Below the pieces are notes generated by a model that saw nothing but the letters and a program-made list of their open reading frames with translations, ran no database searches and was not told the origin of the DNA. A stretch of DNA of 64,000 bases. It comes from an uncultured Planctomycetales bacterium. Lineage in GTDB: Bacteria; Omnitrophota; Gorgyraeia; Gygaellales; Profunditerraquicolaceae. Below, piece after piece: positions 12,790 through 36,277 of this stretch (position 1 is the stretch's first letter; each line of letters begins with the position of its first letter). The stretch lies in assembly GCA_964645795.1 (NCBI GenBank), contig CAZYCL010000001.1, positions 95,194 to 159,193 of the forward strand. Reading direction: 5' to 3'. The position numbers and the translations under genes were made by a program.

Positions 12790-14220
12790 TTAACCCACAA
12801 GGTTAATAATTATCTCAAGCATCTCGTCGTAAGCGGTAATGATCTTTGCCGCTGCCTGATATGATTTTTCATACTCGAGCAGGTATGTCCCTTCCTCATC
12901 CAGAGAAACAGCTGAGGCGCTGTCCCTTAAGTTTTGCACTTCCGTAAGCAGGTTTTGGGTATAATTCATCCTGGTCTCGGTGTCTGCGGTATTGGCTCCC
13001 AGGTGGCTTACCAACTGCGTAAAGAAATCCGAAAAGGTATAACCGCCTAAGCCGGCGATGCCTGCATCCACGATTTGCGCTATTGCCAGGGCATTCAAAC
13101 CGTCTCCCGGCACGCCAGCGGCATTTGAAGCAGCGGCAAGCAAGCCCGGGCCGGTAATAGGGTTAAGAAACGCCGCGTTAACCTGCATATTAAGGGCAGG
13201 CTCGGCAGGGACCACGGGATCAAAGAAGTTGCCGCCTGCGGCTCCCGCCAGATCAAAACCCAGCGCGTGCTGTGTATTAATAGTGTTAATAAACTCGGTA
13301 GCGAAGTTATCCAGCTGCTGCTTATAATAAAGGATGCCGGTAGAAGCTGAGTCTCTTAAATTAAGCAGGCCCCTTAATTCTCCATCGTTAATAGTGGCAT
13401 CCGGACCTAAGGGCGCATCGGAAAACCTTATGTCCACGTAATTATAATTGGCGGGATCCTGCACGCCCACCAGCGTAAGGTAATAATTATCCTGGACGAC
13501 TACCCTTCCTCCGATATAAACCTGAATGGAATTATTGGTCCCTTCAGAGACCGTGATATCCACATAGTTACTTAAATCGTTCAAGGCCTGGTCGCGCTGA
13601 TCAAGCAGGTCGTTAGGCATATCGCCTGTTCCGCTCGCCTCCCGGATAAGCACGTTTAAATCGCGCAAATGCTGCAACAGGGTATTTACCTTGGTGATAT
13701 CCTGCTGTATGTATCTATCGGTATCGTTGCGGGCATTCATCAATGTCTGGGAGAGGGCATTTATCTCCTGGGAGAGCGATACGCCCGCCTGGACAGCTAC
13801 CTGCCGCACAGTTATGCTTTCAGGTGTATTGGAAACGCTCTGGAAGGCATTGAAAAAATCGGTTATTTTATCAAAGATGCCTTCTCTTAATCCGGCTATG
13901 GAATCTATCTGCTGCAGAAACTGTGCTGACATGCTGTAGTTGCCCTGGGTGGAAACCAGGTTGCGTATGTTATACTCAAGCGCCTTATCGTAATTGCGGT
14001 AAATAGAAATAACGTCTACGCCGGTCCCTACCTGATACGGCCCTATCTCCTTGACAAAAGAAGGAGCTGCAAAAGGATCGGAGGCGGACATCACCGGTGA
14101 CTGGCGGTGAAAACCCGGGGTATTGACATTGGCCACGTTATGGCCGACAACGTCTATGGCCCTGCGAAACGCAGAAAGCGCCCTTCTGCCTAATTCAAGG
14201 CCGAAAAAGGTAGAAAGCAT
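12790..14220 (-). CDS. flgK: Flagellar hook-associated protein 1 FlgK
   Basis: N-terminus MLSTFFGLELGRRALSAFRRAIDVVGHNVANVNTPGF. 476 aa. Confidence 0.9.
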   Translation of the reverse strand: MLSTFFGLELGRRALSAFRRAIDVVGHNVANVNTPGFHRQSPVMSASDPFAAPSFVKEIGPYQVGTGVDVISIYRNYDKALEYNIRNLVSTQGNYSMSAQFLQQIDSIAGLREGIFDKITDFFNAFQSVSNTPESITVRQVAVQAGVSLSQEINALSQTLMNARNDTDRYIQQDITKVNTLLQHLRDLNVLIREASGTGDMPNDLLDQRDQALNDLSNYVDITVSEGTNNSIQVYIGGRVVVQDNYYLTLVGVQDPANYNYVDIRFSDAPLGPDATINDGELRGLLNLRDSASTGILYYKQQLDNFATEFINTINTQHALGFDLAGAAGGNFFDPVVPAEPALNMQVNAAFLNPITGPGLLAAASNAAGVPGDGLNALAIAQIVDAGIAGLGGYTFSDFFTQLVSHLGANTADTETRMNYTQNLLTEVQNLRDSASAVSLDEEGTYLLEYEKSYQAAAKIITAYDEMLEIIINLVG

Positions 14221-14549
14221 TATTTAAGCTCCTCGTATATATCTATTTTTCCCTTTAAGATGGTGGCCGCAACGTCTTCGCTGCTTACTTTATACTGGCC
14301 GGACGAGACCTTTTCCTTGATTTCATTGACTTTTTCTTCCCGGACCTTATCAAACTCTTCACGAACTTCCATCTGCAATCTCTTGACTAAAGCCTCCTGT
14401 GAGATAGAAACGTAGTCCCCTTCGCTTCCAGCCCTTTCTGAGGCTCCAGGCTCAGAAGAAGGCTGGGAAGCAGGAGACGATTTTTCTGCTTTATTCGTTT
14501 TTTTGGTAAATCCTAAGAAATTTAACGGATTGAGTCTATTTATGTCCAT
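14220..14549 (-). CDS. flgM: Anti-sigma-28 factor FlgM
   Basis: The C-terminal VREEKVNEIKEKVSSGQYKVSSEDVAATIL matches the FlgM family. ATG at 14547-14549 with GGAGG 8 nt upstream. The track ORF begins at an upstream GTG. Confidence 0.7.
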   Translation of the reverse strand: MDINRLNPLNFLGFTKKTNKAEKSSPASQPSSEPGASERAGSEGDYVSISQEALVKRLQMEVREEFDKVREEKVNEIKEKVSSGQYKVSSEDVAATILKGKIDIYEELK

Positions 14550-14569
14550 TTCCTTTGCCTCCACTAAGA

Positions 14570-14705: not shown

Positions 14706-15878
14706 TTATCTTCTTATTAAACTAAGGTATTGCTGACCCCGGCCAAAAGCCTGGGCTAAAAACGCTGCCCTGGATATCTTATCCTCACTCAACTCATTGT
14801 CTGTCAAAAGGTTAAGTGATTGGACAATAGCCTGACTTACTCTTTCATCCATATCTTTTACTAACTCTCTGATTTCCTTAACCGTTCGGATTACTGATGT
14901 TAAATTAACAAATTCCTTTTTGGCCAGCTTATTCTCAATTATCTTAACCAGCTTAAGGAAATCCCCGATCTTCTTATAAAGCTTCCTATTAACCAGGGGG
15001 TCCCTCTGGCTCTCAGCCATATTCCATAACAGTAAAAGATGATGTTTGCGCCTGAACTGGTCGATGACATTTTTATTGGCGTCAAAACCTGTGTCCTTAT
15101 ACCAGGCGTAATCAGTAAACATTGCCGGCGAACTCCCAAGGAAGATAAATTCTTTTTTAAAAGCATTGATGCATTCCTCTATGCTCAAATTGCCATAGAT
15201 CGCCGGATTGAGGAAGTTATCCGCCACCCAATCCTCAACTGGCCGCGAAGCATGCTTCAGGCTTTTCAGATGACTCCCAAAAGCCCTTGATAGCACAGCT
15301 ACCTTCTCCTTAAAGTCGTTTGTTTTCTTCTTGAAAAGCAGGATGTGCCCCAGGAGCCGTTTCAGTATTTCGAAAAATAAACTCATATTATCGCTGCAGG
15401 TAACTACGAGTACCCCTTTGCGGCTGACTAGATTCGTTAACTTCTTGCTGATAATTTTTTGGGCCTCCTTGCCTAAGCCGTGCAAAAAGCCTTCGGCAAT
15501 AACTAAATCATACCCCTGCTCAAGGTTAAAATCCTCGATTTTCCCCGGGAAAAGCTTCCAACGGTTTTTTTCTATCTTGTGCCTTCGCAATAAAATCAGC
15601 AATTCCTTCTGTGCGGCTGGGTTGGGCTCAACAAAATCTACATCAGCGCCCCAAAAAAAGAAAGCCAGGGCATTATATCCGCCTCCCGGCCCCACTTCTA
15701 GGATGGTCTTATTCTTGAAGAATGCGGGTGCAATACCTAAAAGTCGATAAAGCCTTTGCCTGCGCTCAATGTGCCGCTTGAAGTTCCGGATATCCTGATG
15801 CACAGGCGATATTTTATGTCTGCCGTAAAAAAGTAAAAAGGGATTATCTTTTTTCATTCCTGCCGGGGATTTGCGCAT
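14706..15878 (-). CDS. Class I SAM-dependent methyltransferase
   Basis: ILEVGPGGGYNALAFFFWGADVDFVEP is a Rossmann motif I (GxGxG) followed by an acidic loop. Confidence 0.7.
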   Translation of the reverse strand: MRKSPAGMKKDNPFLLFYGRHKISPVHQDIRNFKRHIERRQRLYRLLGIAPAFFKNKTILEVGPGGGYNALAFFFWGADVDFVEPNPAAQKELLILLRRHKIEKNRWKLFPGKIEDFNLEQGYDLVIAEGFLHGLGKEAQKIISKKLTNLVSRKGVLVVTCSDNMSLFFEILKRLLGHILLFKKKTNDFKEKVAVLSRAFGSHLKSLKHASRPVEDWVADNFLNPAIYGNLSIEECINAFKKEFIFLGSSPAMFTDYAWYKDTGFDANKNVIDQFRRKHHLLLLWNMAESQRDPLVNRKLYKKIGDFLKLVKIIENKLAKKEFVNLTSVIRTVKEIRELVKDMDERVSQAIVQSLNLLTDNELSEDKISRAAFLAQAFGRGQQYLSLIRR

Positions 15879-16528
15879 AAGGCAATAAGATAGTGCGACA
15901 TGGCGAAGAAACCTGAATGCAGTACTTCGTCGTTCATGCCGAATATAAACACGTTTTTGAAGTATCTTCTCAAGTCGTTCTTTAATTCGGTTCCTGTCTT
16001 AGGATTCACATGCCCCTTTTTACTCCAATAAGAAGCATACCTTTGGCTTTCTTTGCTTGGAGTACCGATAATACAGATACCTGTTTTCTTTAGTGATTTG
16101 CTTATATTGAGCAAAAACATCGCCTCCTTGCTTTTAGGGATATGCTCCAGGACATCCAGGGAATAAGCTGCGTCATGAAGGGGGCGTACTGGCTTCTTAG
16201 TTAAATCCGCAACCTTAAAGACTACGTTATAATCTTTGCGTTTTACTTGGCAATCCTCAATAAAAACCGGATCAAAATCAACTGCCACAACCTTACCTGC
16301 TTCCTTCGCCACCAGCTCCGCTCCCACCCCGTCTCCGCAGCCGACCTCAAGGACGGTTTTGCATCCCGAGAGCATCTTAGCCACAAACTTATACCGAGCT
16401 AACATAAATAAGAGCCGTTTTGGGTCGGATCTCCAAAAATGGCTGGTATGCATGCCTAACTCAACTGCACCGATTTTTTCATATTCTTTTACTATCTGAT
16501 TGTACTGTTGCTCTTTGGTCGTCCTCAT
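15854..16528 (-). CDS. Class I SAM-dependent methyltransferase
   Basis: VLEVGCGDGVGAELVAKEAGKVVAVDFD motif. Start moved to the internal Met (MRTTKEQQY) to remove the 107-nt overlap with the upstream gene. Confidence 0.7.
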   Translation of the reverse strand: MRTTKEQQYNQIVKEYEKIGAVELGMHTSHFWRSDPKRLLFMLARYKFVAKMLSGCKTVLEVGCGDGVGAELVAKEAGKVVAVDFDPVFIEDCQVKRKDYNVVFKVADLTKKPVRPLHDAAYSLDVLEHIPKSKEAMFLLNISKSLKKTGICIIGTPSKESQRYASYWSKKGHVNPKTGTELKNDLRRYFKNVFIFGMNDEVLHSGFFAMSHYLIALCANPRQE

Positions 16529-16538
16529 AATTGCTCCT

Positions 16539-17621
16539 TTAATTAGGGATAGCGTACCAAACCGTATCCCAGAATGTTTTAGAGTAATGGGCGAGATGAT
16601 AAGTATAACCCTTAAGCATTTTCGACAAAAACAACGGAATAGCAAACATATCTTGCTTGCGATGATAAATGCTTACCGCCAGAGATGGCCGATGGGTACG
16701 GATGACAACCAGCCCTCCCTTCAACACATCCATTTCTGATCCCTCCACATCCAGTTTAATAAAATCGAGCTTTTCTATTCTTTTTTCCCTGACAAAATCA
16801 TCTATAGTAACCGTTTTTAACTTCTCGGCCCCTTTCCTGCCAAAAACTATACCTGAGCCCTCAGGATTATCCCGGCTATTCCAGAACGGTATCAGGCCGC
16901 CCTTGCTCCAGAGAAGATGAGGGTATATTTTTATATTCTTCTTATTTTTAAGATCCTTCTTGAAGGAAGATTGAATATTCTTATAGAGTGGGTCGAAACC
17001 GTAAATAAAACCTTTTGCGCCGGTCTTGCGAGAGAAATTAAGGGTATCTTTGCCGTTAAAGACCCCTCCCTCTATAACGGTGTGGATCTTACCCCAGGGC
17101 AGAAAATCCAGGTACTGCGAACTCTGCATCCTTTGCGATTTCACTCTGTTGTAAAGCTTAACCAAGCCCTCCGGATTCCGCATCCTGGCCCCTATCAACA
17201 ACCGATACAGATACCTCTCTCTTTTGTCTTCCAATAATTGCTCGGTATTTTTAAAAAACACGGAATATTTTCTTGCTTCGTCTGCATTAAAAATAAGGTA
17301 ATCGTAATAAAGCAGGGGGTTGACGATAAAATAATTTCTGATCCCTAAATCATCCAATCGCTCTTTAATCATCGGCCAGAATGCAGAAGTTACAAGGAGA
17401 CAATCGAGTTTTTTCATGTTGAGTGAGTCAATAGGATTTACTATCCTGAGCCCGCTTCTTACTCCGGTCTTATGGTCGTCGACAAAACAGGCGATAGCCA
17501 CGTCCCTGCGCCTGACCTCAAGCATCCCCTTGAAGCGCGCGCCACCGTCGCCGGCCCCATAAAGCCCGACCCGGCAGCCAATCGGTATCTGCTCAAACCT
17601 ATTGATAAACTTAGCTTTCAT
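16539..17621 (-). CDS. FkbM-family methyltransferase
   Basis: GFDPLYKNIQ...FIKLDVEGSEMDVLKGG is the FkbM-domain signature. Confidence 0.75.
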   Translation of the reverse strand: MKAKFINRFEQIPIGCRVGLYGAGDGGARFKGMLEVRRRDVAIACFVDDHKTGVRSGLRIVNPIDSLNMKKLDCLLVTSAFWPMIKERLDDLGIRNYFIVNPLLYYDYLIFNADEARKYSVFFKNTEQLLEDKRERYLYRLLIGARMRNPEGLVKLYNRVKSQRMQSSQYLDFLPWGKIHTVIEGGVFNGKDTLNFSRKTGAKGFIYGFDPLYKNIQSSFKKDLKNKKNIKIYPHLLWSKGGLIPFWNSRDNPEGSGIVFGRKGAEKLKTVTIDDFVREKRIEKLDFIKLDVEGSEMDVLKGGLVVIRTHRPSLAVSIYHRKQDMFAIPLFLSKMLKGYTYHLAHYSKTFWDTVWYAIPN

Positions 17622-18426
17622 CTAACGGGCCTAATATTTTGCTGATTTTCCCAACGTTAAGCGATGAGTTAAGCGCTCTTTTCTCCTCGCAGGGAAGGCT
17701 TAAAAAATCGATTTTTTCAATAAGGCGCTTATCGAGGCGATTTTCCTCTGCCACCCACAGCGCAAAATCATACCTGCTCATCGTCTTCGGGCAAGCGAGA
17801 TGGTATAAACCTGCGATATTCTTTTTAAGTGCCGCGTAAATCCAACCGCTTAAATCAATGACGTCTGTAGGGTTGAAAATCCGGTTGAACGCTGCTTTGA
17901 CGGGACGCTTATCCTTCAAATTTGAATATACATCTGAATATATGCTCTTTTCCTCAAGATTGCGGGAGTATGTCTGGCTCAGGCGCAAGATAAGATAATC
18001 CCTGATGTTGCCCTCGATAAATTGCTCGGTTTCGCGTTTCAGCTTTCCGTAAAGATTAACCGGGGCCGGCGGGTCAGTCTCCGAATAATTGCCCTTAGCG
18101 CCATCAAAGACCTGATCGGATGAAAGAAATACCACCTTGATCTTTCTGGAGGCCAAATAGGAAATGAATTCCGACGTCTTTTCGACATTTATGCGTCGGG
18201 CAAGCTCCCGGTCTTTAAGACAATCATCGATCTTGACGACAGCCGCAGCGACCACTACCCAATCGCAGGGATCAAACAAAGAGAAATCCCCGCTTAAAAG
18301 ATCGAAGTTTACCAGGCCGTTTTTCTTATGGGAAAGGCAGGTGCCGATTACTTTCTCTTTCCGGGAGAGAAAATTGAAAAGATTGTAACCAATAAGGCCG
18401 GATGCCCCCGCGATTCCTATCGTCAT
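17611..18426 (-). CDS. NAD(P)-dependent sugar reductase, dTDP-4-dehydrorhamnose reductase (RmlD)-like
   Basis: Glycine-rich N-terminus IGIAGASGLIGYNL. The C-terminal substrate-binding region is RmlD-like. Confidence 0.65.
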   Translation of the reverse strand: MTIGIAGASGLIGYNLFNFLSRKEKVIGTCLSHKKNGLVNFDLLSGDFSLFDPCDWVVVAAAVVKIDDCLKDRELARRINVEKTSEFISYLASRKIKVVFLSSDQVFDGAKGNYSETDPPAPVNLYGKLKRETEQFIEGNIRDYLILRLSQTYSRNLEEKSIYSDVYSNLKDKRPVKAAFNRIFNPTDVIDLSGWIYAALKKNIAGLYHLACPKTMSRYDFALWVAEENRLDKRLIEKIDFLSLPCEEKRALNSSLNVGKISKILGPLDES

Positions 18427-19493
18427 ACGAATTCAAGATGACCGCTGTCCGATTCCAGATATTCTAAAATCAGCTTATTCTTGTTATTGGCCACACAGTG
18501 ATGATTGCAGACCAATGAAGGGTTGATCTTAAAGAATTTGTTTTTGTCCGAATACCAAAATTCTTTAAAGCGCCGGTCTTTGATCGAACCTATAAGCCCC
18601 TGCTGTAGGTTATAGGCCTTATCCTGACAGGGATATATATTCATATCCGCCCCGATAACCGGAAGGACCTGAAGATAGGGGCACCAGGCATAATCTTTCT
18701 TGAATTTATCATCCAGCTCATGGTAGGCATCAAAAATCTCGAAACCTTCGCCGGTAAAATCGTTTATCGCACGGCAAACCTGCTCTTTAACAAGGGCGAA
18801 TACCGGCTTATGGTAATCGTTATTCTCTTTACCGTTATTGCTGACAATACAAGGAGAGACCTTGACACTGTCCACTTTCATGCCCTTAAGCCGGGATATA
18901 AAATCGTAGATATGGACAGCGTTCTCCCGGCCCACGATAAAGCTTATTCCCAGATAGCACTTGCCGTTGTGCTTCTTGAACTCTTCGATGTTCTTCATTA
19001 CTTTGCCAAACTCCCCTTTTGCTACCTTGCGATAACTCGAATAGCTCTCCTCATCCCATCCGTCGATGGAGATCCTAAGCCAGGTAGCGTTTTTTGCAAA
19101 AAAATTGGCGATTTCGCCGGTCAACAGCGCCCCGTTGGTAAGGCTGGCGAACTTTATGCCGCCACGCGCCAGATTCTTGACTGCTTCCAGTAAATAGGGA
19201 TAGCAGAAAGGCTCCCCCCCTCCGCTGAAAGTAACTGCCCTGACCTTCATCTCAACAAGATCATCGATGATCTCGAGCATCTTTTCTCTGGGGATAAAAT
19301 CGCGCGTCACCATGTCTTTACCCAGCTGCAGGTTATCTACGCGATAGGCGCAGTAATGGCAGTTGTGGTTACAGACATTGGTAGGCTTGATACGGATATG
19401 TATAGGCGCCAGGATCGCGGGATTCTCCTTGGGCAGCGAATCCAGCTTATCCTTGAAGTGGAAGACCTTGGTCTTTGTGTAGAGGTGCCCCAT
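18423..19493 (-). CDS. Radical SAM enzyme with a SPASM/twitch-like C-terminus
   Basis: CNHNCHYCAY (CxxxCxxC). C-terminal Cys clusters (C..GADMNIYPC, CNHHC). Start set at ATG 19491-19493 (MGHLYTK), 1 nt after the upstream stop. The Arg/Ser-rich 102-aa extension in the track is an overlap artefact. Confidence 0.8.
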   Translation of the reverse strand: MGHLYTKTKVFHFKDKLDSLPKENPAILAPIHIRIKPTNVCNHNCHYCAYRVDNLQLGKDMVTRDFIPREKMLEIIDDLVEMKVRAVTFSGGGEPFCYPYLLEAVKNLARGGIKFASLTNGALLTGEIANFFAKNATWLRISIDGWDEESYSSYRKVAKGEFGKVMKNIEEFKKHNGKCYLGISFIVGRENAVHIYDFISRLKGMKVDSVKVSPCIVSNNGKENNDYHKPVFALVKEQVCRAINDFTGEGFEIFDAYHELDDKFKKDYAWCPYLQVLPVIGADMNIYPCQDKAYNLQQGLIGSIKDRRFKEFWYSDKNKFFKINPSLVCNHHCVANNKNKLILEYLESDSGHLEFV

Positions 19494-19494
19494 T

Positions 19495-20157
19495 TTATTC
19501 GAAGAATATAAACTCGTAATCGCCGGTATAACCGAACTCTTTAAATAAAAACACCCACTCCTCGGGCCTGAAGAACGACTCGCAGGTAAGCGCCCAGCAT
19601 TCCAGATTAAACAGCTCTGCCTCGTCGCGATAACTTTCAACCGCGATATATTTGTTCTTGCCCACTCTCTCGATCTCCTTGACTGCCTTCTTAAGATCAG
19701 GCGCGATAAGATTATGCAAAGTGGTGATGGAGATGACCAGGTCAAACTCCTTCGGCTTAAAAGGGAACTTATCCTGGGCGCGCTGCACAAAAAGGTCATT
19801 TTTTATCTCTTCTTTCGCATCCCCAACGGCGTAGCTTGAGATATCAAAGCCCTTTACTTCGGCTTTGGGAATAAGCCGGGTGAACTCATAAAGCAGGTAT
19901 CCCTTGCCGCAGCCGACATCCAGGATCCGGGCATTCTTGGGCAGGCGGTAATGTTCGATGAGCTTGCGAGCGACCGGCTCCCATCTTCCGTCGTATTTAT
20001 AGCCTCCGTAACCGTAGCGTCTGTCTCCGTCCCAGAAATCCTTACCGTAGGAACGCGCGACCTGCATGCAGTGGATCTTGTCGTCCACCATCCTCTTAAG
20101 GTAATCGCGCTTTGTCCCTTTATGAAGCGAGGTGATGATATTAAGCTCTTTTAACAT
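19495..20157 (-). CDS. Class I SAM-dependent methyltransferase
   Basis: ILDVGCGKGYLLYEFTRLIPKAEVKGFDIS motif. Confidence 0.75.
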   Translation of the reverse strand: MLKELNIITSLHKGTKRDYLKRMVDDKIHCMQVARSYGKDFWDGDRRYGYGGYKYDGRWEPVARKLIEHYRLPKNARILDVGCGKGYLLYEFTRLIPKAEVKGFDISSYAVGDAKEEIKNDLFVQRAQDKFPFKPKEFDLVISITTLHNLIAPDLKKAVKEIERVGKNKYIAVESYRDEAELFNLECWALTCESFFRPEEWVFLFKEFGYTGDYEFIFFE

Positions 20158-21071
20158 TTTGACCTGACTCCTTTGATAAACTGAAATATCCTGTCCGCGG
20201 ATATGCCGAAATAATCGCGCATTCCGTCGGTAGTTTTTACCTCATGGAGGAACCTGTCGGCTATGCCCAGACAAAACAGCTTCCAGGGGACATCGGTCCT
20301 GGATCTTTCCCTGGCGATAATGCTGCCAAGGCCGCAGCCGATAAAATGCTCCTCTACGCACAATACCGTCTTGCAACTCTCCAGCAGCTTCAAGAGTCTT
20401 TCCTTGTTCAACGGCTGGACCATGGGCACGGATATTAACTTTACGTTAATGCCTTCCTTCTCAAGCATCTGTGCGGCCGCCAATACCTGCGTGCCTATGG
20501 AACCGTGGAATACTATGGCGATATCCCCTATTTCCCGCATGAGGATCGGTGCCGTGATATCGATATCGTGGCCGGCATGCAGTTTGGGCTCCCCCCTTTT
20601 TGCCAGCCTCACATACACAGGTTCCCGGGCAGAAAGAGAATACTCTGCCGCTTTTTGAGCTTCAACCGGGTCAATCGGCGAGATAACCGTCAGGTTCGGC
20701 AAGGTCTGGGCAACACCGATATCCTCTACCGAGTAATGCGTCATTCCTTGCGGCGCATAGGTCACGCCGCTGCCGATACCTGCCAGCACAACAGGAAGTT
20801 TCTGATAGCATATGTCGTTTCTAACCTGCTCATAACAGCGGTACAAAAGAAAAGGGATGATATTGTACAGGTAAACTTTGAACCCTGCCATGCTCATGCC
20901 TGCCGCAAAGCTGGTAGCGTTCTGCTCAGCCACGCCTAAATTGAGGAACTGCTCAGGAGAATCCTTCTGAAACTCATCGAATACCCCCAGGCCTGCATCT
21001 TCGCTTATAATAAATATATCTTTTCTTTGCTTAGAGGACTCTATTATCTTATTGATAAAGGTATTTCTCAT
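20151..21071 (-). CDS. Transketolase, C-terminal (pyrimidine-binding) subunit
   Basis: 306 aa with a Transket_pyr-like core. Stop/start overlaps the N-terminal subunit gene, as in split transketolases. Confidence 0.85.
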   Translation of the reverse strand: MRNTFINKIIESSKQRKDIFIISEDAGLGVFDEFQKDSPEQFLNLGVAEQNATSFAAGMSMAGFKVYLYNIIPFLLYRCYEQVRNDICYQKLPVVLAGIGSGVTYAPQGMTHYSVEDIGVAQTLPNLTVISPIDPVEAQKAAEYSLSAREPVYVRLAKRGEPKLHAGHDIDITAPILMREIGDIAIVFHGSIGTQVLAAAQMLEKEGINVKLISVPMVQPLNKERLLKLLESCKTVLCVEEHFIGCGLGSIIARERSRTDVPWKLFCLGIADRFLHEVKTTDGMRDYFGISADRIFQFIKGVRSKC

Positions 21072-21850
21072 CCCAATTCCTTTAACGCCTTCTCTTTTAT
21101 CTCGTCGGTCACCAGGTAATAATGCCAGACAAGCTCATCCTCCATAAAAGATACGCCTTTGCCCTTGGTCGTGCAGCAAAGGATGATCTTTGGCTTTCCG
21201 GGGCAGTCGGCATTCAGCGCCTCTTCGATCTGGGAATAATCGTGTCCGCCGGCCTCAAATACTCCCCAGCCGAACGATTCCCACTTTTTACGCAACGGCT
21301 CAAAATGGCAGATCTCTTTGGCGCGGCCGTAGCCCTGAAGGTTGTTGAAATCTACAAGAGCGGTGAAGTTATCGATGTTCAGCTTGGAGGCGAAGAGCGC
21401 GCCTTCCCAGATAGAGCCCTCCTGCGACTCTCCGTCGCCGATAAGGGCATAGACTTTGCGGTTGTTTGCCTGCTTCTTAAAAGCATAAGCAAGCCCCAAG
21501 CCGACGTTGAAGCCGTGGCCGAGAGAGCCCGCGGAAACTTCTATGCCCCTGGCAGAGAATCGGTCCAGGTGCGCAGGAAGCGTCCCATTGTTTAAATAGT
21601 AACCATCGAGTGTGGCGGCATCGATGATGCCTTTCTGCGCCAAGGTCGCATAAAGCGATATTGCCGCATGCCCTTTACTTAAAATAAAGATGTCCCTTTT
21701 GTCCCAGGGCTCAAGCACGAGCTTCCTGAAGTAAAGCGTGGCAAGGATATCCACGCAGGACAAAGCCGAGCCCACGTGGGGGCTCTTGGAGCGATGCGCG
21801 GCAATGATTATCTTCTTTCTTATCTGCCTGGCAATATCTTTTAGGTCCAT
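21068..21850 (-). CDS. Transketolase, N-terminal (thiamine-diphosphate-binding) subunit
   Basis: SKGHAAISLYATLAQKG...GSLGHGFNVGLGLAYAFK...LIGDGESQEGSIWEGALFASKLNIDN are TPP-binding motifs. Confidence 0.85.
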   Translation of the reverse strand: MDLKDIARQIRKKIIIAAHRSKSPHVGSALSCVDILATLYFRKLVLEPWDKRDIFILSKGHAAISLYATLAQKGIIDAATLDGYYLNNGTLPAHLDRFSARGIEVSAGSLGHGFNVGLGLAYAFKKQANNRKVYALIGDGESQEGSIWEGALFASKLNIDNFTALVDFNNLQGYGRAKEICHFEPLRKKWESFGWGVFEAGGHDYSQIEEALNADCPGKPKIILCCTTKGKGVSFMEDELVWHYYLVTDEIKEKALKELG

Positions 21851-22915
21851 TTAAATAAAGTTTATATGCCTGACTTTGGGGTTCTTGATCTCCCAGAGGA
21901 ACTCGTTTATCTGGTGCGGCCGGCAGTTGGGAGGGCACCTGCTTACGTCAAGCCTCTTTTCAAGGAGGCTTTTTATGCGCTTGCGCCTCGGCCCTTTCCA
22001 GATATCTGCGAACGAATCCTTGTAGATGTTGCCGAAAACGAACTCTTTTTTGTCCCAATGCGGCAGGCAGGCGGCGATATCGCCTGCGGAGTTGAGGGTC
22101 GAAATAAAGCTGGTGCCGTAACAATGACGATAGCCTCTTTTTCCGTATTCACAAAATGACTGCCTGCGGGCGATCACTGAAAAATTCTTCGTAGAAAGCT
22201 TTTCTGCGGCATCCAGGGAGCGTCTTAGCGAAATCGCGCTGAACTTTTTGGGTTTATAGTTTTGAAGCCGGCTCTGGTGTACGAACGGCTTGATGGCAAA
22301 ATAATCCACTCCCCGCTTTTTCGTTTCCCTGACCGCAGCCAGCAAATACCTGATGTTCTCCGGAATAAGCACGAATTGTATCCCGATATCCAGCTTAAGC
22401 CTCTTCATTCTTTTTATCTCACAGGAATTCTTTATGTTATCCAGGACCGTCGCGAATACCTCCTTTTTGACCCCGTGGATTGCCGCGTAGTTTTCCGGGC
22501 TTCCGGCGTTAAAACTAAAACGGACAAACGTCAGGCAGGCAAGGATCTCGGCGGCCAAATCGCGGTTAAGGAATTGCCCGTTGGTGAACATCCCGACGTC
22601 GATGCCGCATTGTTTAGAAAACTTTACGAGGCGAGCAATATCAGGATGGAGCAAAGGCTCCCCCTCGCCGGCAAACAGGATGCTCTTCAGGCCGCAGGAT
22701 GCGGCTTGCCTGATGAAAGAAAGCATCTTTTTTGTATCGAGCCTGCGGTTAGGATAACCGATAAAATCATAGGCGCAAAATATGCAACGGTGGTTGCACC
22801 TGCCGACGGGGCTGACTTCCATGTATAGGGGAAAACAATCGCCTTTTTCCAGGAATAGGTTAACCCTGGGCAAGTGATACGTAAGCTTATGCCCGTCAAA
22901 AATGAATTTGGCCAT
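21851..22915 (-). CDS. Radical SAM enzyme with a Cys-rich C-terminus
   Basis: VSPVGRCNHRCIFCAYDF. C-terminal CLPHW..SRCPPNC. Related to the 18423-19493 protein. Confidence 0.8.
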   Translation of the reverse strand: MAKFIFDGHKLTYHLPRVNLFLEKGDCFPLYMEVSPVGRCNHRCIFCAYDFIGYPNRRLDTKKMLSFIRQAASCGLKSILFAGEGEPLLHPDIARLVKFSKQCGIDVGMFTNGQFLNRDLAAEILACLTFVRFSFNAGSPENYAAIHGVKKEVFATVLDNIKNSCEIKRMKRLKLDIGIQFVLIPENIRYLLAAVRETKKRGVDYFAIKPFVHQSRLQNYKPKKFSAISLRRSLDAAEKLSTKNFSVIARRQSFCEYGKRGYRHCYGTSFISTLNSAGDIAACLPHWDKKEFVFGNIYKDSFADIWKGPRRKRIKSLLEKRLDVSRCPPNCRPHQINEFLWEIKNPKVRHINFI

Positions 22916-23815
22916 CTAACCCCTTATATCCTCGATCTCCACGCTCGTATGGCCGAAGATCTGAAACCTGTTGGTCTTGACCTTTACGTCACATGGGTTG
23001 CATTCGCCGTAATAATCGCAGTCTCTGAATTTGTCTATTTCATCCATGGAGAAGCCTTCCTCAAGTATATGGGCAATCGGGTTCCTGGCATTATACAAAT
23101 CAGAGTGACAACGATAAATATGGCCTCCTGGATCAACAATAAGCTCGCTTATCCTACACCGGCAGCGGCGCAGCTTATGACTGGAGACGCTATCCGGATA
23201 TTTGAAACTGCCATATATAGTTCCGTTATAATCACCAAGGTACTCTTTAGTCCTGAAATCAATATCCAAGGCAAGGCAGTCCTTTTGCACCCGGAGTATA
23301 TGCTGCCTTTTCTCGGGATCGGGATGCAAAACCGAATACAGCCCTACCCGGAATCCCGCAGCTTCCATTTTTTTGGCTTTAGAGATCAAATCTTTAATAT
23401 CGTTCTGGCCGGGATGATAGCTGACCCGAATGGCCGCGTATGGCGCCTGGCGGATAAAACGCTCGACCGGAACACGCTTGATAAATTCATCCACATCAAA
23501 CATCATATTGGTAAGAAGGTCCATTTTGATATCTTTTTTTACCTCGTTCACGAAACGGTAGAAACCCGGGTGCAACGTCGGCTCTCCCCCCTGAAAAGTA
23601 AGCGGCAGGTCATCGCGCAGCACTAAACGGTTTGCCGCAGCAATCCAGTCATCTATCTTCATCTGATTGCGCTTTGCCTGGGCCAAACGCCCTTGGCCTG
23701 CGTCATCGTGCAGATTGATGCAATAAGGGCACTTAAGATTGCATGCCAAAGTAAGGAAGAATGCCACATAATTATGGTGCTGCTTTAAAATGATCGGTTT
23801 CAATCGAGCCGCCAT
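22916..23815 (-). CDS. Radical SAM enzyme with a Cys-rich C-terminus
   Basis: TLACNLKCPYCIN. C-terminal RCRCR...GGHIYRC...CDYYGECNPCD. Confidence 0.75.
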   Translation of the reverse strand: MAARLKPIILKQHHNYVAFFLTLACNLKCPYCINLHDDAGQGRLAQAKRNQMKIDDWIAAANRLVLRDDLPLTFQGGEPTLHPGFYRFVNEVKKDIKMDLLTNMMFDVDEFIKRVPVERFIRQAPYAAIRVSYHPGQNDIKDLISKAKKMEAAGFRVGLYSVLHPDPEKRQHILRVQKDCLALDIDFRTKEYLGDYNGTIYGSFKYPDSVSSHKLRRCRCRISELIVDPGGHIYRCHSDLYNARNPIAHILEEGFSMDEIDKFRDCDYYGECNPCDVKVKTNRFQIFGHTSVEIEDIRG

Positions 23816-23818
23816 GGA

Positions 23819-24757
23819 TTATTTCGGCAAAAGCCGTTTTACGTAACCACAAACCGCTTCCGGAGTAATAAAATACATGCAGCGCTTTTTCTGCATGCAG
23901 TCTCTGCTCATGTTCATGCAAGGCATGCACTCGTAATCTGCTTCCGGTTTCAACTTTACCCCGAGACGGCCCAGATCCACTTCGCTGCTGAAGGTTGGGC
24001 CGAACAAAGCGATGATCTTTTTCTTGAAGGCAAGCGCCAAATGCATCCCGAGGCTGTCGTTGGTTATGATCAGCCTGCAGGAGTTGAGCCAATCCATGTA
24101 TTCATACAGGCTGTTCAGCCCCTTTTGATAGGAGATTGTATACTTGTTCTTCTTCAGCTTCTTCTCCAGCGCCTTCCAATACTCGGCCGGCCAGGCCTTA
24201 TTCGGCCACTTTGGGCCGATATGTGTATTAAAACCGATATCGTAGGCTTCTTTTGTCTTCGGGGCATAACCCAAAAGGGAATCTTCTCCGTTCCATCTTT
24301 TACCGACGATCTCAAACAGGAAATTGTAGAATGATTTATGTGTTTTATGCTTGAGGCTGTGGTTGGCGCTTACCTCAAGGACCTTCTCGGCCATGGAGTA
24401 GGCAGCGACTTCCCCTGTAACCGGATCAAAGCGGAAACCGAATTTCTTCCATGCCTTCATGGAATCCGCAAGGGCGCAGATCCCCGGAGCCTTCTCAAGG
24501 TTAATGATCGTATCAAAATGCTCGGACTGGAGCTGCAAAACCGTGGTCAGGTCATAATGCATGAGCCTCTTTATGTAAGGTATCCCCTCCAGGAAAGGAT
24601 AGCAGCTTTTGTCGGTAAGCCAGGTTACTGCCGCATCCTTGAAGCAATGCAAGATCGGCGTGCACCTGACCACATCGCCGAGGCTAACCTTGTCATCGGT
24701 CTTATCCACCAAGAACTCGGTATAGCCTATTTTTATGATCAATACCTTTTCTTTCAT
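23819..24757 (-). CDS. Family 9 glycosyltransferase (heptosyltransferase-like)
   Basis: N-terminus KVLIIKIGYTEFLVD..GDVVRCTPIL. C-terminus ITNDSLGMHLALAFKKKIIALFGPT is the GT9 signature. Confidence 0.75.
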   Translation of the reverse strand: MKEKVLIIKIGYTEFLVDKTDDKVSLGDVVRCTPILHCFKDAAVTWLTDKSCYPFLEGIPYIKRLMHYDLTTVLQLQSEHFDTIINLEKAPGICALADSMKAWKKFGFRFDPVTGEVAAYSMAEKVLEVSANHSLKHKTHKSFYNFLFEIVGKRWNGEDSLLGYAPKTKEAYDIGFNTHIGPKWPNKAWPAEYWKALEKKLKKNKYTISYQKGLNSLYEYMDWLNSCRLIITNDSLGMHLALAFKKKIIALFGPTFSSEVDLGRLGVKLKPEADYECMPCMNMSRDCMQKKRCMYFITPEAVCGYVKRLLPK

Positions 24758-24770: not shown

Positions 24771-26678
24771 TTAATTGCCGCCTCTCAAGAGGCCTTCTTT
24801 TACAATATCCAGCACCCATTGCATGCGGTGCTTCACGGTATGCTCTCTGAGAAGCCGCTCCTGCCCTCTTCTGGCTATCTCCATGCGTTGGTCATCGTGT
24901 TTTAAATAGAACTCGATCTTTTCGCGCAGCTCTTCTTTAGTCCTGAATACCTCTATCTCTTTACCCAACTCAAAAAGTTCGCCTATGCCTCCGGGCTCCT
25001 CATCCTCGGCGGTTAATCGAGTAAGGAGAAAACCTCCCGCGGCAATGGTATCAAATATGCGGGGGTGGTTATTGGTAGCCGCGTGCATATTCAGGTTGAT
25101 CTTGGCGGCATTCACGATCTTACAGATCTCGTCGCCGTAAGCGGCGCTTCCCCGGGCGCTGGCCTTAAAACGGGGGTCAAGCGACCAGCCTTTGCCGTAA
25201 AGCGAAAGGTTCATATCCCTGATGCTTTCAAGATAGGGCAGACGAAGGCTGGCAGCGGCAAGACCGCTCCAGAGGTAAGTGGTTAAAATCACGTTTTCGC
25301 TGATATCGCCGTAAATTTGCCTGCACTTTCTGCAGGCGTCTTCGTTCATCTCTATTTTACCGAATTTCTTCTTAGCCTGCTGATAAATTTCTCGAAAGGC
25401 AGCGAAATCGTACGAATCGGCTTCGCGCATTGCCTCAATTAAATACTCTACCACATCTGCCGGGATAAAGCTATTCGCCGAAGCATAATCAGGATAATGG
25501 CATATAAACGCGATATCGCTGCCGTATTTTTTCCTGTCTTCATCGCAAAGCTCCAGGCTCCGGTAGACATCGGTATCGGCTCCGAGATACAAACGGTGGA
25601 TCCTGTCTTTCTCAAAACCTAATTTCTCCAAATCGTCAATAAACATCGCTGCCACGATAAATATCTGATCATGCGGGCCGATCTTTTTATCCGCCCGGAT
25701 ACCGGGATTAAAGATAAAAGGCATATAATCCTGAATCCAGCTGGCCGTGATTAACCCGGGATGCTCATACGACTCACCCGCAAGATGATTGATCTTAAAA
25801 TAAATGTCAGGCATGAACTCGCGTAACATCTTGTAAAAATAGACCTGTGATATCAATAGCGTATCCGATTCTAAGACTTGCGTCTGGCAGCCAAGAAGGT
25901 TAAAACCTTTTATGCAGGTGCGCATAGAATGCTGCATATAGGCAGTCGTGGTATTAAGCTCTCCCAAAACGCGTAACCTGCGCCCTGATTTTTCAGATAA
26001 AACATCGACAAGCCTGCTGCGGTCGATCTGGCGGTAATGGGAACTGACCTCAAGGAGGCAGCGCTGCGCGTCTTCGTACATTCCCTTAACCAAAGAAAAA
26101 ATGCTTTTCTGGGCGTCTTGGTAAAAAGCGTGGTCCTCTGCGGCGCAAAAGACAGCACCGAGGAAAGGGATCTGGCCCTGATAGCCGCTGCGCAAGAAAT
26201 CCGTAAATGAATTTACGGCATCTTGTCCGGCAAATATGTAAACTTTGCGGGATTCGAACAATTGCCGCAAATCAAAATGGCGCATTATGGCCTTAAGGAT
26301 CCCCGTATGACGCTCGATTACGAAAAAAACATCCGACTGCTCGCTCCTCGAACATGCGTAAAACAGGCGCACTCCGGCATCAAGCCCAAAAAAGATAAAG
26401 GCGCCGTTATGAGCGGACATTTTAGCCAGATAGCCGTTCGCCTCGGGGAAAATCTCTTCTCTGTAATACTTTTTCAGCTCATGCATCAGCCTGCGTTCCC
26501 CGCCTTTTTTGACAAAAACCCCCAGATCTCCCTCTTCATTAACTGCGGCCAACTCAAACTCAGAGCCGTTATCGGCAGCCAACTGCTGATAAAGAGGATA
26601 ATTATGGATCTTTAATGAAGCCAGGTTCTCCTCATAGAAGTTTTCAGACAACATTTGCCCCTCTTCGGCCCGTTTCAT
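24771..26678 (-). CDS. Maf-like N-terminal region fused to a CgeB/GT1-like C-terminal domain; putative flagellin glycan transferase
   Basis: The N-terminus (FYEENLASLKIHNYPLYQQL) resembles Maf/DUF115 starts. The last ~150 aa (LYGKGW...RTKEELREKIEFYLKHDDQRMEIARRGQERLLREHT) look like a CgeB-type glycosyltransferase C-terminus. Confidence 0.45.
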   Translation of the reverse strand: MKRAEEGQMLSENFYEENLASLKIHNYPLYQQLAADNGSEFELAAVNEEGDLGVFVKKGGERRLMHELKKYYREEIFPEANGYLAKMSAHNGAFIFFGLDAGVRLFYACSRSEQSDVFFVIERHTGILKAIMRHFDLRQLFESRKVYIFAGQDAVNSFTDFLRSGYQGQIPFLGAVFCAAEDHAFYQDAQKSIFSLVKGMYEDAQRCLLEVSSHYRQIDRSRLVDVLSEKSGRRLRVLGELNTTTAYMQHSMRTCIKGFNLLGCQTQVLESDTLLISQVYFYKMLREFMPDIYFKINHLAGESYEHPGLITASWIQDYMPFIFNPGIRADKKIGPHDQIFIVAAMFIDDLEKLGFEKDRIHRLYLGADTDVYRSLELCDEDRKKYGSDIAFICHYPDYASANSFIPADVVEYLIEAMREADSYDFAAFREIYQQAKKKFGKIEMNEDACRKCRQIYGDISENVILTTYLWSGLAAASLRLPYLESIRDMNLSLYGKGWSLDPRFKASARGSAAYGDEICKIVNAAKINLNMHAATNNHPRIFDTIAAGGFLLTRLTAEDEEPGGIGELFELGKEIEVFRTKEELREKIEFYLKHDDQRMEIARRGQERLLREHTVKHRMQWVLDIVKEGLLRGGN

Positions 26679-27796
26679 TGCGGTCTGCGGTATTCCGGAA
26701 AATAGCCATTAGGCTGATTATCTACCCCGGAAATATTGGAGTAAGCCCTGAACTGCATGCAAAGCTGCTGGTATAGACGGCTATCATGGATGGTTGAATA
26801 AGTATAAAAATCGCAACAAGCGCCGGAAAAAGATGATTTAAAGCTGTAGAGTGAATCTGCGCCGCTGTTATGGTATCCGCCGCCCAGGCTGAAAACCTTA
26901 TAACCCTCTTTCTTGGCCCATAAAATCGCCTCATAAAGCAGGAGATTATTCGGGCATAAAGACAGGTGATGTTGGTCAGAACCCGAAAAGTAATAATGAA
27001 TATAGTTTCCCAGATGCAGGAATACGGATGAGGCGATCTTATCACTTTTATAAAAAGCGCTGAAGAGGGAAATATTGTCTTTGAGCGAAGAAAATAAATC
27101 CAGGAAGAACTCCAATGAAAAGAAATAGAATCGGCTTGCCTGGTTGCGGCTCATCGTAGAGGCATAAAGCTCATAAAACTTTTTAATGCTCTCTTGCGAA
27201 ACTACGTCTTTTTTGATCTCCACCCCCTGCCGCTGCGCCTTTTTAATAGAGCTTCTATTGCCCTTGGAAAAACCTTTGCGGATAATATCTTCGGTCTGCA
27301 ACAGGTCCACATAAACAATCCGGCGGTTCATTCGCGCCGAAAACATCTCAAGCGTATCCTTGTCGCCGTTGTAATACGGATTGACCCTGCCGAATTCGCA
27401 GACAATCTTATTTTCCCGGCAAAAATCGTTGAATGTCTTAAGAAAGAACGGAATAAAGTTTTCTTTATCTTTAGCCGGACATTCAATGATCGGTCCGCTG
27501 TATTCCGGAGTTATAATGTCAAAGGCCTCCTCTTTTCCTTCGTAAAACGGCAAAAGATGCACAGGCCTGCGCAGAAAAATATGCACTGCCCGGTTTCTAC
27601 CCTGATTTAGGCAAAAAAGCCCGGCCTTGGCCTGATATAGATTCTCGTAAACCCGGGCATAGCCTGGTAGCAGAAAAACATCCTGATGCGGCCTTTCCAG
27701 GCAGCCAAGCTCATCCAACCACTGCGATTGATCTTCCGGAAGCGAGAAATTCTTAACCTGATAGTCCGCGCTCATTTCTCGGCTCTGATCACCCAA
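26675..27796 (-). CDS. FemAB-like (Acetyltransf_6/BioF2-like) aminoacyl- or acyltransferase
   Basis: FYELY...RFYFFSLEFF...YYFSGSD...PNNLLLYEAILWAKKEGYKVFSLGGG is typical of the FemAB/GNAT-type fold. Confidence 0.6.
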   Translation of the reverse strand: MGDQSREMSADYQVKNFSLPEDQSQWLDELGCLERPHQDVFLLPGYARVYENLYQAKAGLFCLNQGRNRAVHIFLRRPVHLLPFYEGKEEAFDIITPEYSGPIIECPAKDKENFIPFFLKTFNDFCRENKIVCEFGRVNPYYNGDKDTLEMFSARMNRRIVYVDLLQTEDIIRKGFSKGNRSSIKKAQRQGVEIKKDVVSQESIKKFYELYASTMSRNQASRFYFFSLEFFLDLFSSLKDNISLFSAFYKSDKIASSVFLHLGNYIHYYFSGSDQHHLSLCPNNLLLYEAILWAKKEGYKVFSLGGGYHNSGADSLYSFKSSFSGACCDFYTYSTIHDSRLYQQLCMQFRAYSNISGVDNQPNGYFPEYRRPQ

Positions 27797-28443
27797 TGCC
27801 TGATGCTGTTCTTACGGTTATCAAACGTCCTTTCGGCATATTCATAAGAATGATTTCTGAAAACACTAAAAAGAGCGCGTATTTCCTTCTCGCTGAAAAA
27901 ATGAATCCAGCCGACGTCTTTTAAATCAAAATCGTTGTAGTCGGTATAAGTCCCCTCTTCTATTTTACGCCCTTTTCCATAGGCATAATCCTTATCGGTG
28001 CGCACCATGGAGAAGAATTCCCCTGCGGGTTTCAGGGTGCGGTATACTTCTTTAACGGACTTTCTGATGCCGGCAAGGCGATTATGCTGCAAGGAAACGC
28101 AATCAATGACCACGTCAAAATAGTTATCAGGATAAGGAAGGCGGTTAAAATCCCCTGCCCTGACAAGCGCCTTAAGCCTAAAGGTTTTCAGCTTTTGCCT
28201 GCATAAAGATACGGCTTGGGGTGATCCTTCTATGCCGTAAGCCTTAAACCCCTCTTGCGCCAGGAATATCACGTGCCTGCCCGGGCCGCACCCCAAATCC
28301 AGGATGCGATACCTGCCTCTTTCCTGCGCCGGAAACCTGAAATATTTCCCGGCGATAAAACGCACGACGAATTCATCGGGATACTTGGCCCGGAACCCCT
28401 GCTCGGCATAAATATCATCCCACCTGGAATCCCAGCTTTTCAT
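27772..28443 (-). CDS. Class I SAM-dependent methyltransferase
   Basis: ILDLGCGPGRHVIFLAQEGFKAYGIEGS motif. Confidence 0.75.
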   Translation of the reverse strand: MKSWDSRWDDIYAEQGFRAKYPDEFVVRFIAGKYFRFPAQERGRYRILDLGCGPGRHVIFLAQEGFKAYGIEGSPQAVSLCRQKLKTFRLKALVRAGDFNRLPYPDNYFDVVIDCVSLQHNRLAGIRKSVKEVYRTLKPAGEFFSMVRTDKDYAYGKGRKIEEGTYTDYNDFDLKDVGWIHFFSEKEIRALFSVFRNHSYEYAERTFDNRKNSIRHWVIRAEK

Positions 28444-30063: not shown

Positions 30064-30121
30064 TTTTCCTCAATGCTGCATTTTTAGATACAGACAAAAA
30101 TCTTGGCAATTTTGGCTATTT

Positions 30122-33162: not shown

Positions 33163-33164
33163 TG

Positions 33165-36259: not shown

Positions 36260-36277
36260 ATCCAGCCTCCCTACCGC

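Follow-up and report, generated by a model that had tools for sequence, protein, structure and literature searches.

A split transketolase with a predicted rebuilt acceptor site, encoded in a conserved radical-SAM sugar cassette within a flagellar gene island of an uncultured Omnitrophota bacterium

Why would a transketolase, an enzyme of central metabolism, be encoded among sugar-modification genes that lie between flagellar genes? The question is raised by a 64,000-nucleotide stretch of DNA (referred to here as the window) from an uncultured Planctomycetales bacterium assigned to the Omnitrophota in GTDB (assembly GCA_964645795.1, contig CAZYCL010000001.1, positions 95,194 to 159,193 of the forward strand), in which two adjacent genes encode the predicted subunits of a split transketolase. 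An earlier reading from the sequence alone (the sequence-only reading) had proposed that the pair either transfers a two-carbon (C2) ketol unit that extends a sugar or supplies sedoheptulose-7-phosphate for heptose synthesis. The analysis described here indicates that the pair belongs to a distinct transketolase subfamily that travels with radical S-adenosylmethionine (radical-SAM) enzymes in a widespread cassette, and tentatively favors C2 transfer to a heptose-class sugar.

All genes in the window are on the minus strand. The two genes in question overlap by 4 bp (ATGA):

21068-21850, minus strand: TK_N, the thiamine diphosphate (ThDP; PP-domain) subunit of a split transketolase, 260 aa (Pfam PF00456 Transketolase_N, E=1.2e-29; PDB 6YAK)
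20151-21071, minus strand: TK_C, the pyrimidine-binding and C-terminal domain subunit, 306 aa (PF02779 Transket_pyr, E=2.3e-27; PF02780 Transketolase_C, E=1.2e-14)

Each of the three Pfam matches was above its own gathering threshold. The score for E1_dh, 19.5 bits, was under threshold, which identifies the enzyme as transketolase type. The nearest solved structures were the two chains of the split transketolase of Carboxydothermus hydrogenoformans (ChTK; 6YAK, E=2.5e-57, and 6YAJ, E=2.7e-40), which works as an alpha2beta2 enzyme (PMC7661550); TK_N is 41% and TK_C 29% identical to the corresponding ChTK chain. At the level of sequence, these matches confirm that the pair is a genuine two-piece transketolase-type ThDP enzyme, at exactly the coordinates (20151-21850) that the sequence-only reading had given for it.

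The active site was compared in an alignment of 69 TK_N and 79 TK_C relatives with ChTK and Escherichia coli TktA, and E. coli numbering is used throughout for the canonical residues. The TktA sequence served only for motif placement; the residue mapping was reproduced by a profile alignment to human transketolase, and ChTK gave the same result. The cofactor and donor side is preserved. In the ThDP motif (GDG...NN) of TK_N, the GDG at positions 138 to 140 and N169 are invariant across the 69 relatives, and His25, His61, His94, and His243, which correspond to E. coli H26, H66, H100, and H261, are kept in 68 or 69 of them. In TK_C, E49 (the cofactor-activating glutamate, E411) and H112 (H473) are present in all 79 relatives. 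The residue equivalent to H100 is histidine in transketolases and phenylalanine in DXS (PMC7661550), so its identity here indicates transketolase-type chemistry with a hydroxylated C2 donor rather than DXS-type chemistry. DXS-like use of pyruvate was ruled out by the invariance of this histidine.

The acceptor side is different. The position of H461 is occupied by glycine (G100 in TK_C) and that of S385 also by glycine (G29), in 79/79 relatives in both cases. At the position of D469 there is a glutamine (Q108), and across the 79 relatives this residue is Q, A, M, G, or S but never Asp; R520 is replaced by lysine (K158), as it is in 76 of the 79. Of the acceptor-site set that characterizes the pentose-phosphate transketolase (EC 2.2.1.1), R358/S385/H461/D469/R520, only the R358 equivalent is retained in the TK_C family, whereas H461, S385, D469, and R520 are all present in ChTK, human, and E. 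coli transketolases. S385, D469, and R520 line the active-site entrance, control acceptor specificity, and have been engineering targets for acceptor range, and H461 and R358, which belong to the same channel, touch the substrate when it is docked (PMC10787763). Judged by these residues, the pair is a distinct transketolase subfamily in which the donor and cofactor side has been kept and the acceptor, or sugar-phosphate, site appears rebuilt in every member examined. The proposal that the pair supplies sedoheptulose-7-phosphate fits poorly with these substitutions.

The genes that adjoin the pair, listed in the direction of transcription, are as follows:

23819-24757, minus strand: glycosyltransferase family 9 (GT9; heptosyltransferase-family)-like protein, 312 aa, with a C-terminal Cys4 motif (Pfam PF01075, AlphaFold2 [AF2] model, Foldseek)
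22916-23815, minus strand: small radical-SAM enzyme (rSAM299), 299 aa (Pfam Radical_SAM)
21851-22915, minus strand: radical-SAM/SPASM enzyme, 354 aa (Pfam Radical_SAM and SPASM), 0 bp from TK_N
19495-20157, minus strand: class-I SAM-dependent methyltransferase (MT220), 220 aa (Pfam methyltransferase domains), overlapping TK_C by 7 bp
18423-19493, minus strand: radical-SAM enzyme (rSAM356), 356 aa (Pfam Radical_SAM; weak PDB matches to BlsE and DesII)
17611-18426, minus strand: RmlD-like NAD(P)H-dependent sugar-nucleotide ketoreductase, 271 aa (Pfam RmlD_sub_bind, E=5e-42)

The length of rSAM356 is that of the gene calls on the identical contig; the mechanical list of open reading frames (ORFs) has a frame of 458 aa. 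The best PDB matches of the SPASM enzyme, all of them weak, were BlsE, DesII, MoaA, and viperin, each of which acts on nucleotides or nucleotide sugars. The RmlD-like protein, a short-chain dehydrogenase/reductase (SDR) that is third downstream of the pair, scored 140 bits against TIGR01214, under the cut-off of 224. The pair lies in an unbroken 22-gene operon (14706-38091) with junctions of -11 to +58 bp, and the junctions of the genes neighboring it are -11 to +13 bp.

Relatives were collected by scanning one genome per species (GTDB representatives) with two TK_C peptide patterns, which identified 110 carriers, of which 80 loci were fetched. ORFs in these loci were stop-to-stop frames clustered at no less than 40% identity, with flanks of up to 10 kb, and the locus sets comprise 81 loci in all, 52 of at least 18 kb, 77 that are non-redundant, and 56 that are informative for cassette type. 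The carriers span more than 10 phyla and include Brocadiaceae (anammox bacteria) and other Planctomycetota, Nitrospirota/Thermodesulfovibrionales, Dissulfurispiraceae, Omnitrophota, Desulfobacterota/Geobacteraceae, Rhodocyclaceae/Sulfuricellaceae, Chloroflexota, Fibrobacterota, and others; the cultured Geobacteraceae among them are Citrifermentans bremense R1, Geotalea toluenoxydans JCM 15764, and Geobacter sp. OR-1. TK_C is 46 to 67% identical to these relatives, compared with 29% to ChTK. In metagenomes, 7,770 of 8,000 scored candidate relatives of TK_N had E values of 0.001 or less, and the best 120 listed were 66 to 100% identical.

The same partner genes recur within 10 kb of the transketolase. 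Among the 52 long loci, an ortholog of the SPASM enzyme was found in 47 (median identity, 37%; 55 of all 81 loci by clustering), the 220-aa methyltransferase in 35 (66%), the 356-aa radical-SAM enzyme in 32 (62%), the 299-aa radical-SAM enzyme and the GT9-like gene in 30 each (58% and 44%, respectively), and the RmlD-like reductase in 23 (26%). MT220 and rSAM356 form a conserved gene pair, and a diverged RmlD-like gene directly follows TK_C in 21 to 23 loci. The view that the pair belongs to a sugar-modification cluster rather than a pentose-phosphate context is borne out, both by its packing in the 22-gene sugar operon and by the 81 relatives' loci, which are cassettes of the same kind. Flagellar genes were within 10 kb in just 3 of the 77 non-redundant loci, which ruled out a flagellum-specific cassette. 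NeuB was within the same distance in 5 of the 52 long and 8 of the 77 non-redundant loci, and a Maf gene was found in none of the 52 related loci. This scarcity of flagellar, NeuB, and Maf genes suggests a general glycan module that was placed into a flagellar island in this organism.

In a second version of the cassette, present in 16 to 17 loci, the SPASM gene and the transketolase are immediately preceded by GmhA-like and HldE-like genes, in the order GSU2086-family, RfaE-domain-II-like, CTP_transf+PfkB fusion, SIS_2, radical-SAM/SPASM, TK_N, TK_C. The best NCBIfam match of the CTP_transf_like+PfkB fusion, in which the domain order is reversed, was HldE (146 bits; cut-off, 521); that of the SIS_2 protein was GmhA (104 bits; cut-off, 276); and that of the RfaE-domain-II-like nucleotidyltransferase was rfaE_dom_II, well under the equivalog cut-off. 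The 330-aa GSU2086-family protein (NCBIfam NF052581, 380 bits), which is weakly deoxyhypusine-synthase-like, always leads this version; its cluster (c13) was found in L016, L018, L021, L022, L025, L047, L070, L073, L081, and L089.

The two versions exclude each other. Of the 56 informative loci, 32 are of the GT9 type and 16 of the GmhA/HldE type; no locus combines the two, and 8 have neither set (Fisher p=1.8e-8). The small radical-SAM gene rSAM299 is in 28 of the 32 GT9-type loci and none of the 16 GmhA/HldE-type loci. Separate transketolases for the two types were ruled out, as identities were equal within and between types (0.53 to 0.56); the second-nearest relative of the TK_C in the window is from a GmhA/HldE-type locus. 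With two exclusive partner sets and transketolases that do not form separate clades, it appears that the same transketolase has been tied independently to two hallmarks of heptose biochemistry. In this way, the earlier suggestion of a heptose-type or chain-extended sugar gains support by association, as 16 other loci carry GmhA-like and HldE-like genes in place of GT9.

Sampling in the reverse direction, from five GT9-like homologs (about 55% identical) and their loci, revealed that the transketolase can be replaced. In four of the five cassettes (L090 to L093; for example, L091:8001-13606), an E1_dh alpha subunit and a Transket_pyr/Transketolase_C beta subunit fill the exact transketolase slot, between the ortholog of the SPASM enzyme (37 to 41% identity) and the genes downstream, and an ortholog of the small radical-SAM enzyme (45 to 48%) is present as well. 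This suggests a framework of GT9 and radical-SAM genes into which different ThDP enzymes can be fitted. Two further loci, L040 and L042, have a transketolase pair plus an E1-like subunit about 10 kb off. In another, a Nitrospira-type flagellar locus, a 653-aa fusion of NeuB and a radical-SAM domain is directly upstream of the radical-SAM/GT9/transketolase cassette (L008:5957-7918).

Upstream of TK_N come two radical-SAM genes and then, in third place, the GT9-like gene. Its match to Glyco_transf_9 (PF01075; 49.3 bits compared to a gathering score of 22) is confined to residues 216 to 261, and because only 46 residues were matched, an AF2 model was built from 58 homologs. The model has a pLDDT of 94.3, and the top Foldseek structures were the WaaC structures 2H1H, 2GT1, and 6DFE, the Veillonella GT9 protein 3TOV, WaaF (1PSW), and TibC (4RAP), with E values of 3.5e-11 to 1e-6 and TM scores of 0.56 to 0.71. 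D28 and four cysteines (C277, C280, C287, and C293) are invariant among the 58 homologs. The spacing of the cysteines, C-x2-C-x6-C-x5-C, recalls, as far as a motif can, the site at which TibC, a heptosyltransferase that acts on proteins, binds iron. The GT9 gene that had been noted three genes from the pair is thus upheld by a Pfam score above threshold and a heptosyltransferase fold, and GT9-like genes neighbor the transketolase in 32 of the 56 informative loci.

The reading that we tentatively favor, and hold with somewhat less than even confidence, is that the pair is a dedicated, non-housekeeping split transketolase of the alpha2beta2 type that carries out the C2-transfer step of a conserved, uncharacterized sugar-tailoring cassette, in which a heptose-class sugar is extended or branched. 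A heptose-class sugar would first be supplied, in the sister loci by the GmhA-like and HldE-like enzymes of the cassette and here presumably by genes that lie outside the window. The adjacent SPASM radical-SAM enzyme might then make or rearrange a carbonyl on the sugar or sugar nucleotide. The transketolase, to judge from its retained catalytic residues, should be capable of forming dihydroxyethyl-ThDP from a ketol donor, and would add the C2 unit to the carbonyl to yield a C2-extended or glycolyl-branched sugar. The RmlD-like reductase could act on the new ketone, the methyltransferases and further radical-SAM enzymes could decorate the product, and the GT9-like transferase would install it. 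All of the substrates in this scheme are ones that we infer. C2 transfer is favored by several features in combination: transketolase and E1 replace each other, the acceptor pocket is rebuilt, a reductase gene is nearby, and the best structural matches of the radical-SAM enzymes, weak as they are, are BlsE, DesII, MoaA, and viperin. The two-carbon ketol transfer of the sequence-only reading likewise fits the kept donor-side residues, the rebuilt acceptor site, and the replacement of the transketolase by E1 alpha/beta.

Several observations weigh against this reading. No 4,6-dehydratase, heptose kinase, or heptose nucleotidyltransferase was found in the window. R358 is kept and R520 is replaced only conservatively, by lysine, and phosphate binding is therefore still possible. 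The gene order of the GmhA/HldE-type loci fits equally well with a transketolase that acts first in the pathway. The two TK_C patterns sample this subfamily only. The five-locus sample of GT9-like homologs is small, and the fifth locus (L094) has GT9 and radical-SAM genes and no ThDP enzyme.

A transketolase that acts first would join a C2 unit to an unusual aldose phosphate, such as a 2-epimeric or 2-deoxy pentose phosphate, to form a non-standard keto-heptose phosphate, which the GmhA-like and HldE-like enzymes would isomerize and activate with a nucleotide and the GT9-like enzyme would transfer. The order of genes in the 16 to 17 GmhA/HldE-type loci is in accord with this route. The HldE, GmhA, and rfaE_dom_II scores, well under the equivalog cut-offs, suggest enzymes with a related but different substrate; the loss of Asp469, which reads the C2 hydroxyl, would allow acceptors of other stereochemistry; and R358 is retained, as is the basic character of position 520. 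However, E1 alpha/beta in the same slot would yield a 1-deoxy-ketose, which an aldose-ketose isomerase could not use. In addition, the phosphate-site residues H461 and S385 are lost in all members, and no isomerase or kinase was found within 10 kb in the window or the 32 GT9-type loci. We regard this route as rather unlikely, yet a serious alternative.

A pentose-phosphate transketolase, or an extra copy that boosts sedoheptulose-7-phosphate for ADP-heptose, might also have come to lie in the island by chance or co-regulation. Split transketolases can be genuine, as the activity of ChTK demonstrates (PMC7661550), the cofactor and donor residues of the pair are all intact, and no second transketolase is visible within the 64-kb window. 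These points are outweighed by the family-wide changes at acceptor residues that ChTK, human, and E. coli transketolases keep, and by the nature of the conserved synteny, which consists of radical-SAM, methyltransferase, and glycosyltransferase genes; in those loci for which gene calls were inspected, neither a transaldolase nor an Rpe or Rpi gene was seen. The level of identity across phyla, when set against that to the ChTK C-terminal chain, points to a mobile cassette, and one locus (L023) has a second, ChTK-like TK_N 10 kb away. The occurrence of the cassette in metagenome-assembled genomes and isolates of Rhodocyclaceae and Geobacteraceae, which have ordinary central metabolism, was also counted against a supply of sedoheptulose-7-phosphate. 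Thus, a housekeeping or supply role seems quite improbable.

It is highly improbable that the C2 unit is joined to 5-deoxyribose, salvaged from the 5'-deoxyadenosine of the nine radical-SAM enzymes, to give 7-deoxy-sedoheptulose and then a 7-deoxy-heptose, since, even though a Synechococcus transketolase makes 7-deoxy-sedoheptulose from 5-deoxyribose (PMC8102628, PMC6358636) and a non-phosphorylated substrate would fit both the lost phosphate-binding residues and the lack of a recognizable GmhB phosphatase in GmhA/HldE-type loci, the proposal is speculative, the partner isomerase is a SIS phosphosugar-binding protein whose Ser/Thr-rich loop is, in a by-eye reading, apparently retained, and the cassette has no nucleosidase or phosphorylase.

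If C2 transfer to a heptose-class sugar is correct, it can be taken a step further. Transketolase and pyruvate dehydrogenase E1-like alpha/beta may be interchangeable C2-donor modules that, with a SPASM enzyme acting on a heptose nucleotide, give a nine-carbon or C2-branched higher sugar by an oxygen-independent route distinct from the NeuB-type aldol condensation, with the product installed by a Cys4 GT9 enzyme on surface proteins such as flagellin. We consider this extension unlikely as a whole.

What the sugar would be attached to in this organism can be approached from the rest of the window. The operon flanks, the other genes of the operon, and the putative flagellin transferase are as follows, with sugar-related genes assigned by Pfam:

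38269-38763, minus strand: flgN, operon flank
37369-38091, minus strand: CMP-sugar synthetase-like
36278-37324, minus strand: NeuB
33165-34301, minus strand: UDP-GlcNAc 2-epimerase
28444-33162, minus strand: three B12-radical-SAM genes
26675-27796, minus strand: FemAB-like
24771-26678, minus strand: Glyco_trans_1_2 protein, 635 aa
within 24771-38091, minus strand: other genes, encoding a 173-aa coiled-coil protein, a 479-aa radical-SAM/SPASM protein, and a methyltransferase
16539-17621, minus strand: FkbM-type methyltransferase, a distal tailoring gene
15854-16528, minus strand: class-I methyltransferase, a distal tailoring gene
14706-15857, minus strand: 383-aa protein without a family match, at the distal end of the operon
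14220-14564, minus strand: flgM, operon flank
5916-7850, minus strand: Maf-type (MptE-like/Maf_flag10) putative flagellin nonulosonic-acid transferase, downstream of fliD (PF01973, E=1e-43; PF20157)

Upstream of the operon are flgN/flgJ/flgI/flgH/flgA/flgG and downstream of it flgM/flgK/flgL/fliW/csrA/flagellin/fliD; flagellar export, motor, and hook genes occupy the part of the window between 42 and 64 kb, and further sugar genes, like the Maf-type transferase, lie downstream of fliD. Relatives of the distal genes (14706-17621) occur sporadically in other loci. The features of a flagellin glycosylation island are present, with sugar genes between flagellar structural genes, a Maf-type transferase, and a nonulosonic-acid synthase. 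Judging from these surrounding genes, the cassette in this organism probably contributes to a flagellar glycan that is formed together with a NeuB-derived nonulosonic acid. A scan of nearly every long minus-strand ORF, with a few small gaps, revealed no SIS/GmhA, PfkB/HldE, or HAD/GmhB domain, in agreement with the earlier statement that GmhA, HldE, and GmhB homologs are absent from the window.

Other features of the island were observed. Between 33165 and 38091, no dehydratase or aminotransferase of the PseB/PseC or LegB/LegC type was found, only the 2-epimerase, NeuB, and the CMP-synthetase-like gene, a gene set that is more suggestive of a sialic-acid-type (neuCBA) route than of a pseudaminic or legionaminic one; the genes for the coiled-coil 173-aa protein and the 479-aa radical-SAM/SPASM protein are interleaved among these neuCBA-like genes. 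Nine radical-SAM genes are located in and around the island (500-1522, 4277-5215, 18423-19493, 21851-22915, 22916-23815, 28444-30063, 30122-31729, 31726-33162, and 34298-35737), a richness that is unusual for a sugar locus. Four of the nine have SPASM domains, and three in tandem have B12-binding domains, two of them with C-terminal TPR repeats. An AsnB-type amidotransferase gene (2407-4269) and a GNAT gene (1912-2376) lie downstream of Maf and, together with the FemAB-like gene within the sugar operon, whose family comprises aminoacyl-tRNA-dependent peptidyltransferases, hint that the glycan is decorated with amino acids or amides. The flagellin (10087-10920) is short, 277 aa, with N- and C-terminal helical regions and a variable domain that is nearly absent, which would leave little surface for glycosylation. 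Beside the flagellar sigma factor, two YcgR-like PilZ proteins (PilZNR plus PilZ) are encoded in tandem (48167-49542), which suggests duplicated cyclic di-GMP brakes on the motor. Among named sequences, the closest relatives of FlhA (57 to 72% identity) and of the GT9-like protein (70%) belong to Candidatus Omnitrophota, so that a flagellated member of this phylum is the probable source of the window; identical sequence occurs in Logan run ERR14964774 and on short contigs of assembly GCA_020047475.1.

If the favored reading is correct, an enzyme of central metabolism has been recruited to tailor cell-surface sugars. Its diagnostic signature would be glycine at the H461 and S385 positions with no Asp at the D469 position; this signature would mark a large uncharacterized cassette and stop the annotation of these genes as pentose-phosphate transketolases. 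The predicted product is an unusual sugar, either extended by C2 or glycolyl-branched and heavily methylated, that would be carried on flagella, S-layers, or lipopolysaccharide, and if transketolase and E1 are indeed interchangeable, the pathway would be a new, phylogenetically widespread branch of bacterial sugar biosynthesis. The naturally altered acceptor pocket involves the same residues that biocatalysis groups mutate and may interest those groups. Taken together, the pair appears to represent a neofunctionalized transketolase subfamily in an uncharacterized, widespread glycan pathway. A search of the full-text literature found no description of a cassette of this kind, and the papers retrieved that mention both transketolase and flagellin glycosylation appear to do so in separate, unconnected passages.

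The locus resembles several known systems in part. With ChTK, the pair shares the two-gene layout, in which one chain holds the PP domain and the other the Pyr and C domains, as well as the ThDP motif and every catalytic His and Glu. The two differ in that the canonical H461, S385, D469, and R520 of ChTK are G, G, Q/A/M/G, and K in the family of the window, and no glycan-cassette setting has been described for ChTK. The resemblance to the ADP-heptose pathway and its GT9 heptosyltransferases consists of the WaaC/WaaF/TibC fold, a GD motif where WaaC has its catalytic Asp, and the GmhA-like and HldE-like genes of the alternative cassette versions. However, the GT9-like protein is 13 to 18% identical to solved GT9 enzymes and has the invariant Cys4 motif, GmhA, HldE, and GmhB were not found in the window, and the versions in sister loci are far under the equivalog cut-offs.

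A further comparison is with the flagellin glycosylation islands of the Campylobacter, Helicobacter, and Aeromonas type, which carry Maf together with nonulosonic-acid genes of the NeuB type. The window has in common with them the flagellar flanks, NeuB, the CMP-sugar synthetase-like gene, the UDP-GlcNAc 2-epimerase, and a Maf homolog, but it adds nine radical-SAM genes, the transketolase pair, the GT9-like gene, and the FemAB-like gene.

The closest functional parallel is with enzymes that place a C2 branch on a nucleotide-activated keto-sugar, namely, the two-protein complexes AviB1/AviB2 and Pau11/Pau12, and YerE, which is followed by the reductase YerF (PMC4753412, PMC9306805). As in the clusters for yersiniose (YerE) and for eurekanate and paulomycose (AviB1/AviB2 and Pau11/Pau12), a ThDP enzyme in a sugar cluster is followed by a ketoreductase, which is YerF or Pau7 in the known systems and the RmlD-like SDR in the window. 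In the sister cassettes, where the GT9 and radical-SAM genes are orthologs, E1 alpha/beta stands in for the transketolase, a further likeness to these systems. The known enzymes are, however, members of other ThDP families, YerE being a POX-type ThDP-dependent flavoprotein and AviB1/AviB2 being E1-like. They use pyruvate to make an acetyl branch, whereas the unit transferred by a transketolase would be dihydroxyethyl (glycolyl), and their acceptors are nucleoside diphosphate-4-keto-deoxyhexoses formed by 4,6-dehydratases, whereas the operon in the window has radical-SAM enzymes in place of a dehydratase. The pair may therefore be best regarded as analogous, rather than homologous, to the YerE/AviB1-AviB2 class of sugar C2-carboligases.

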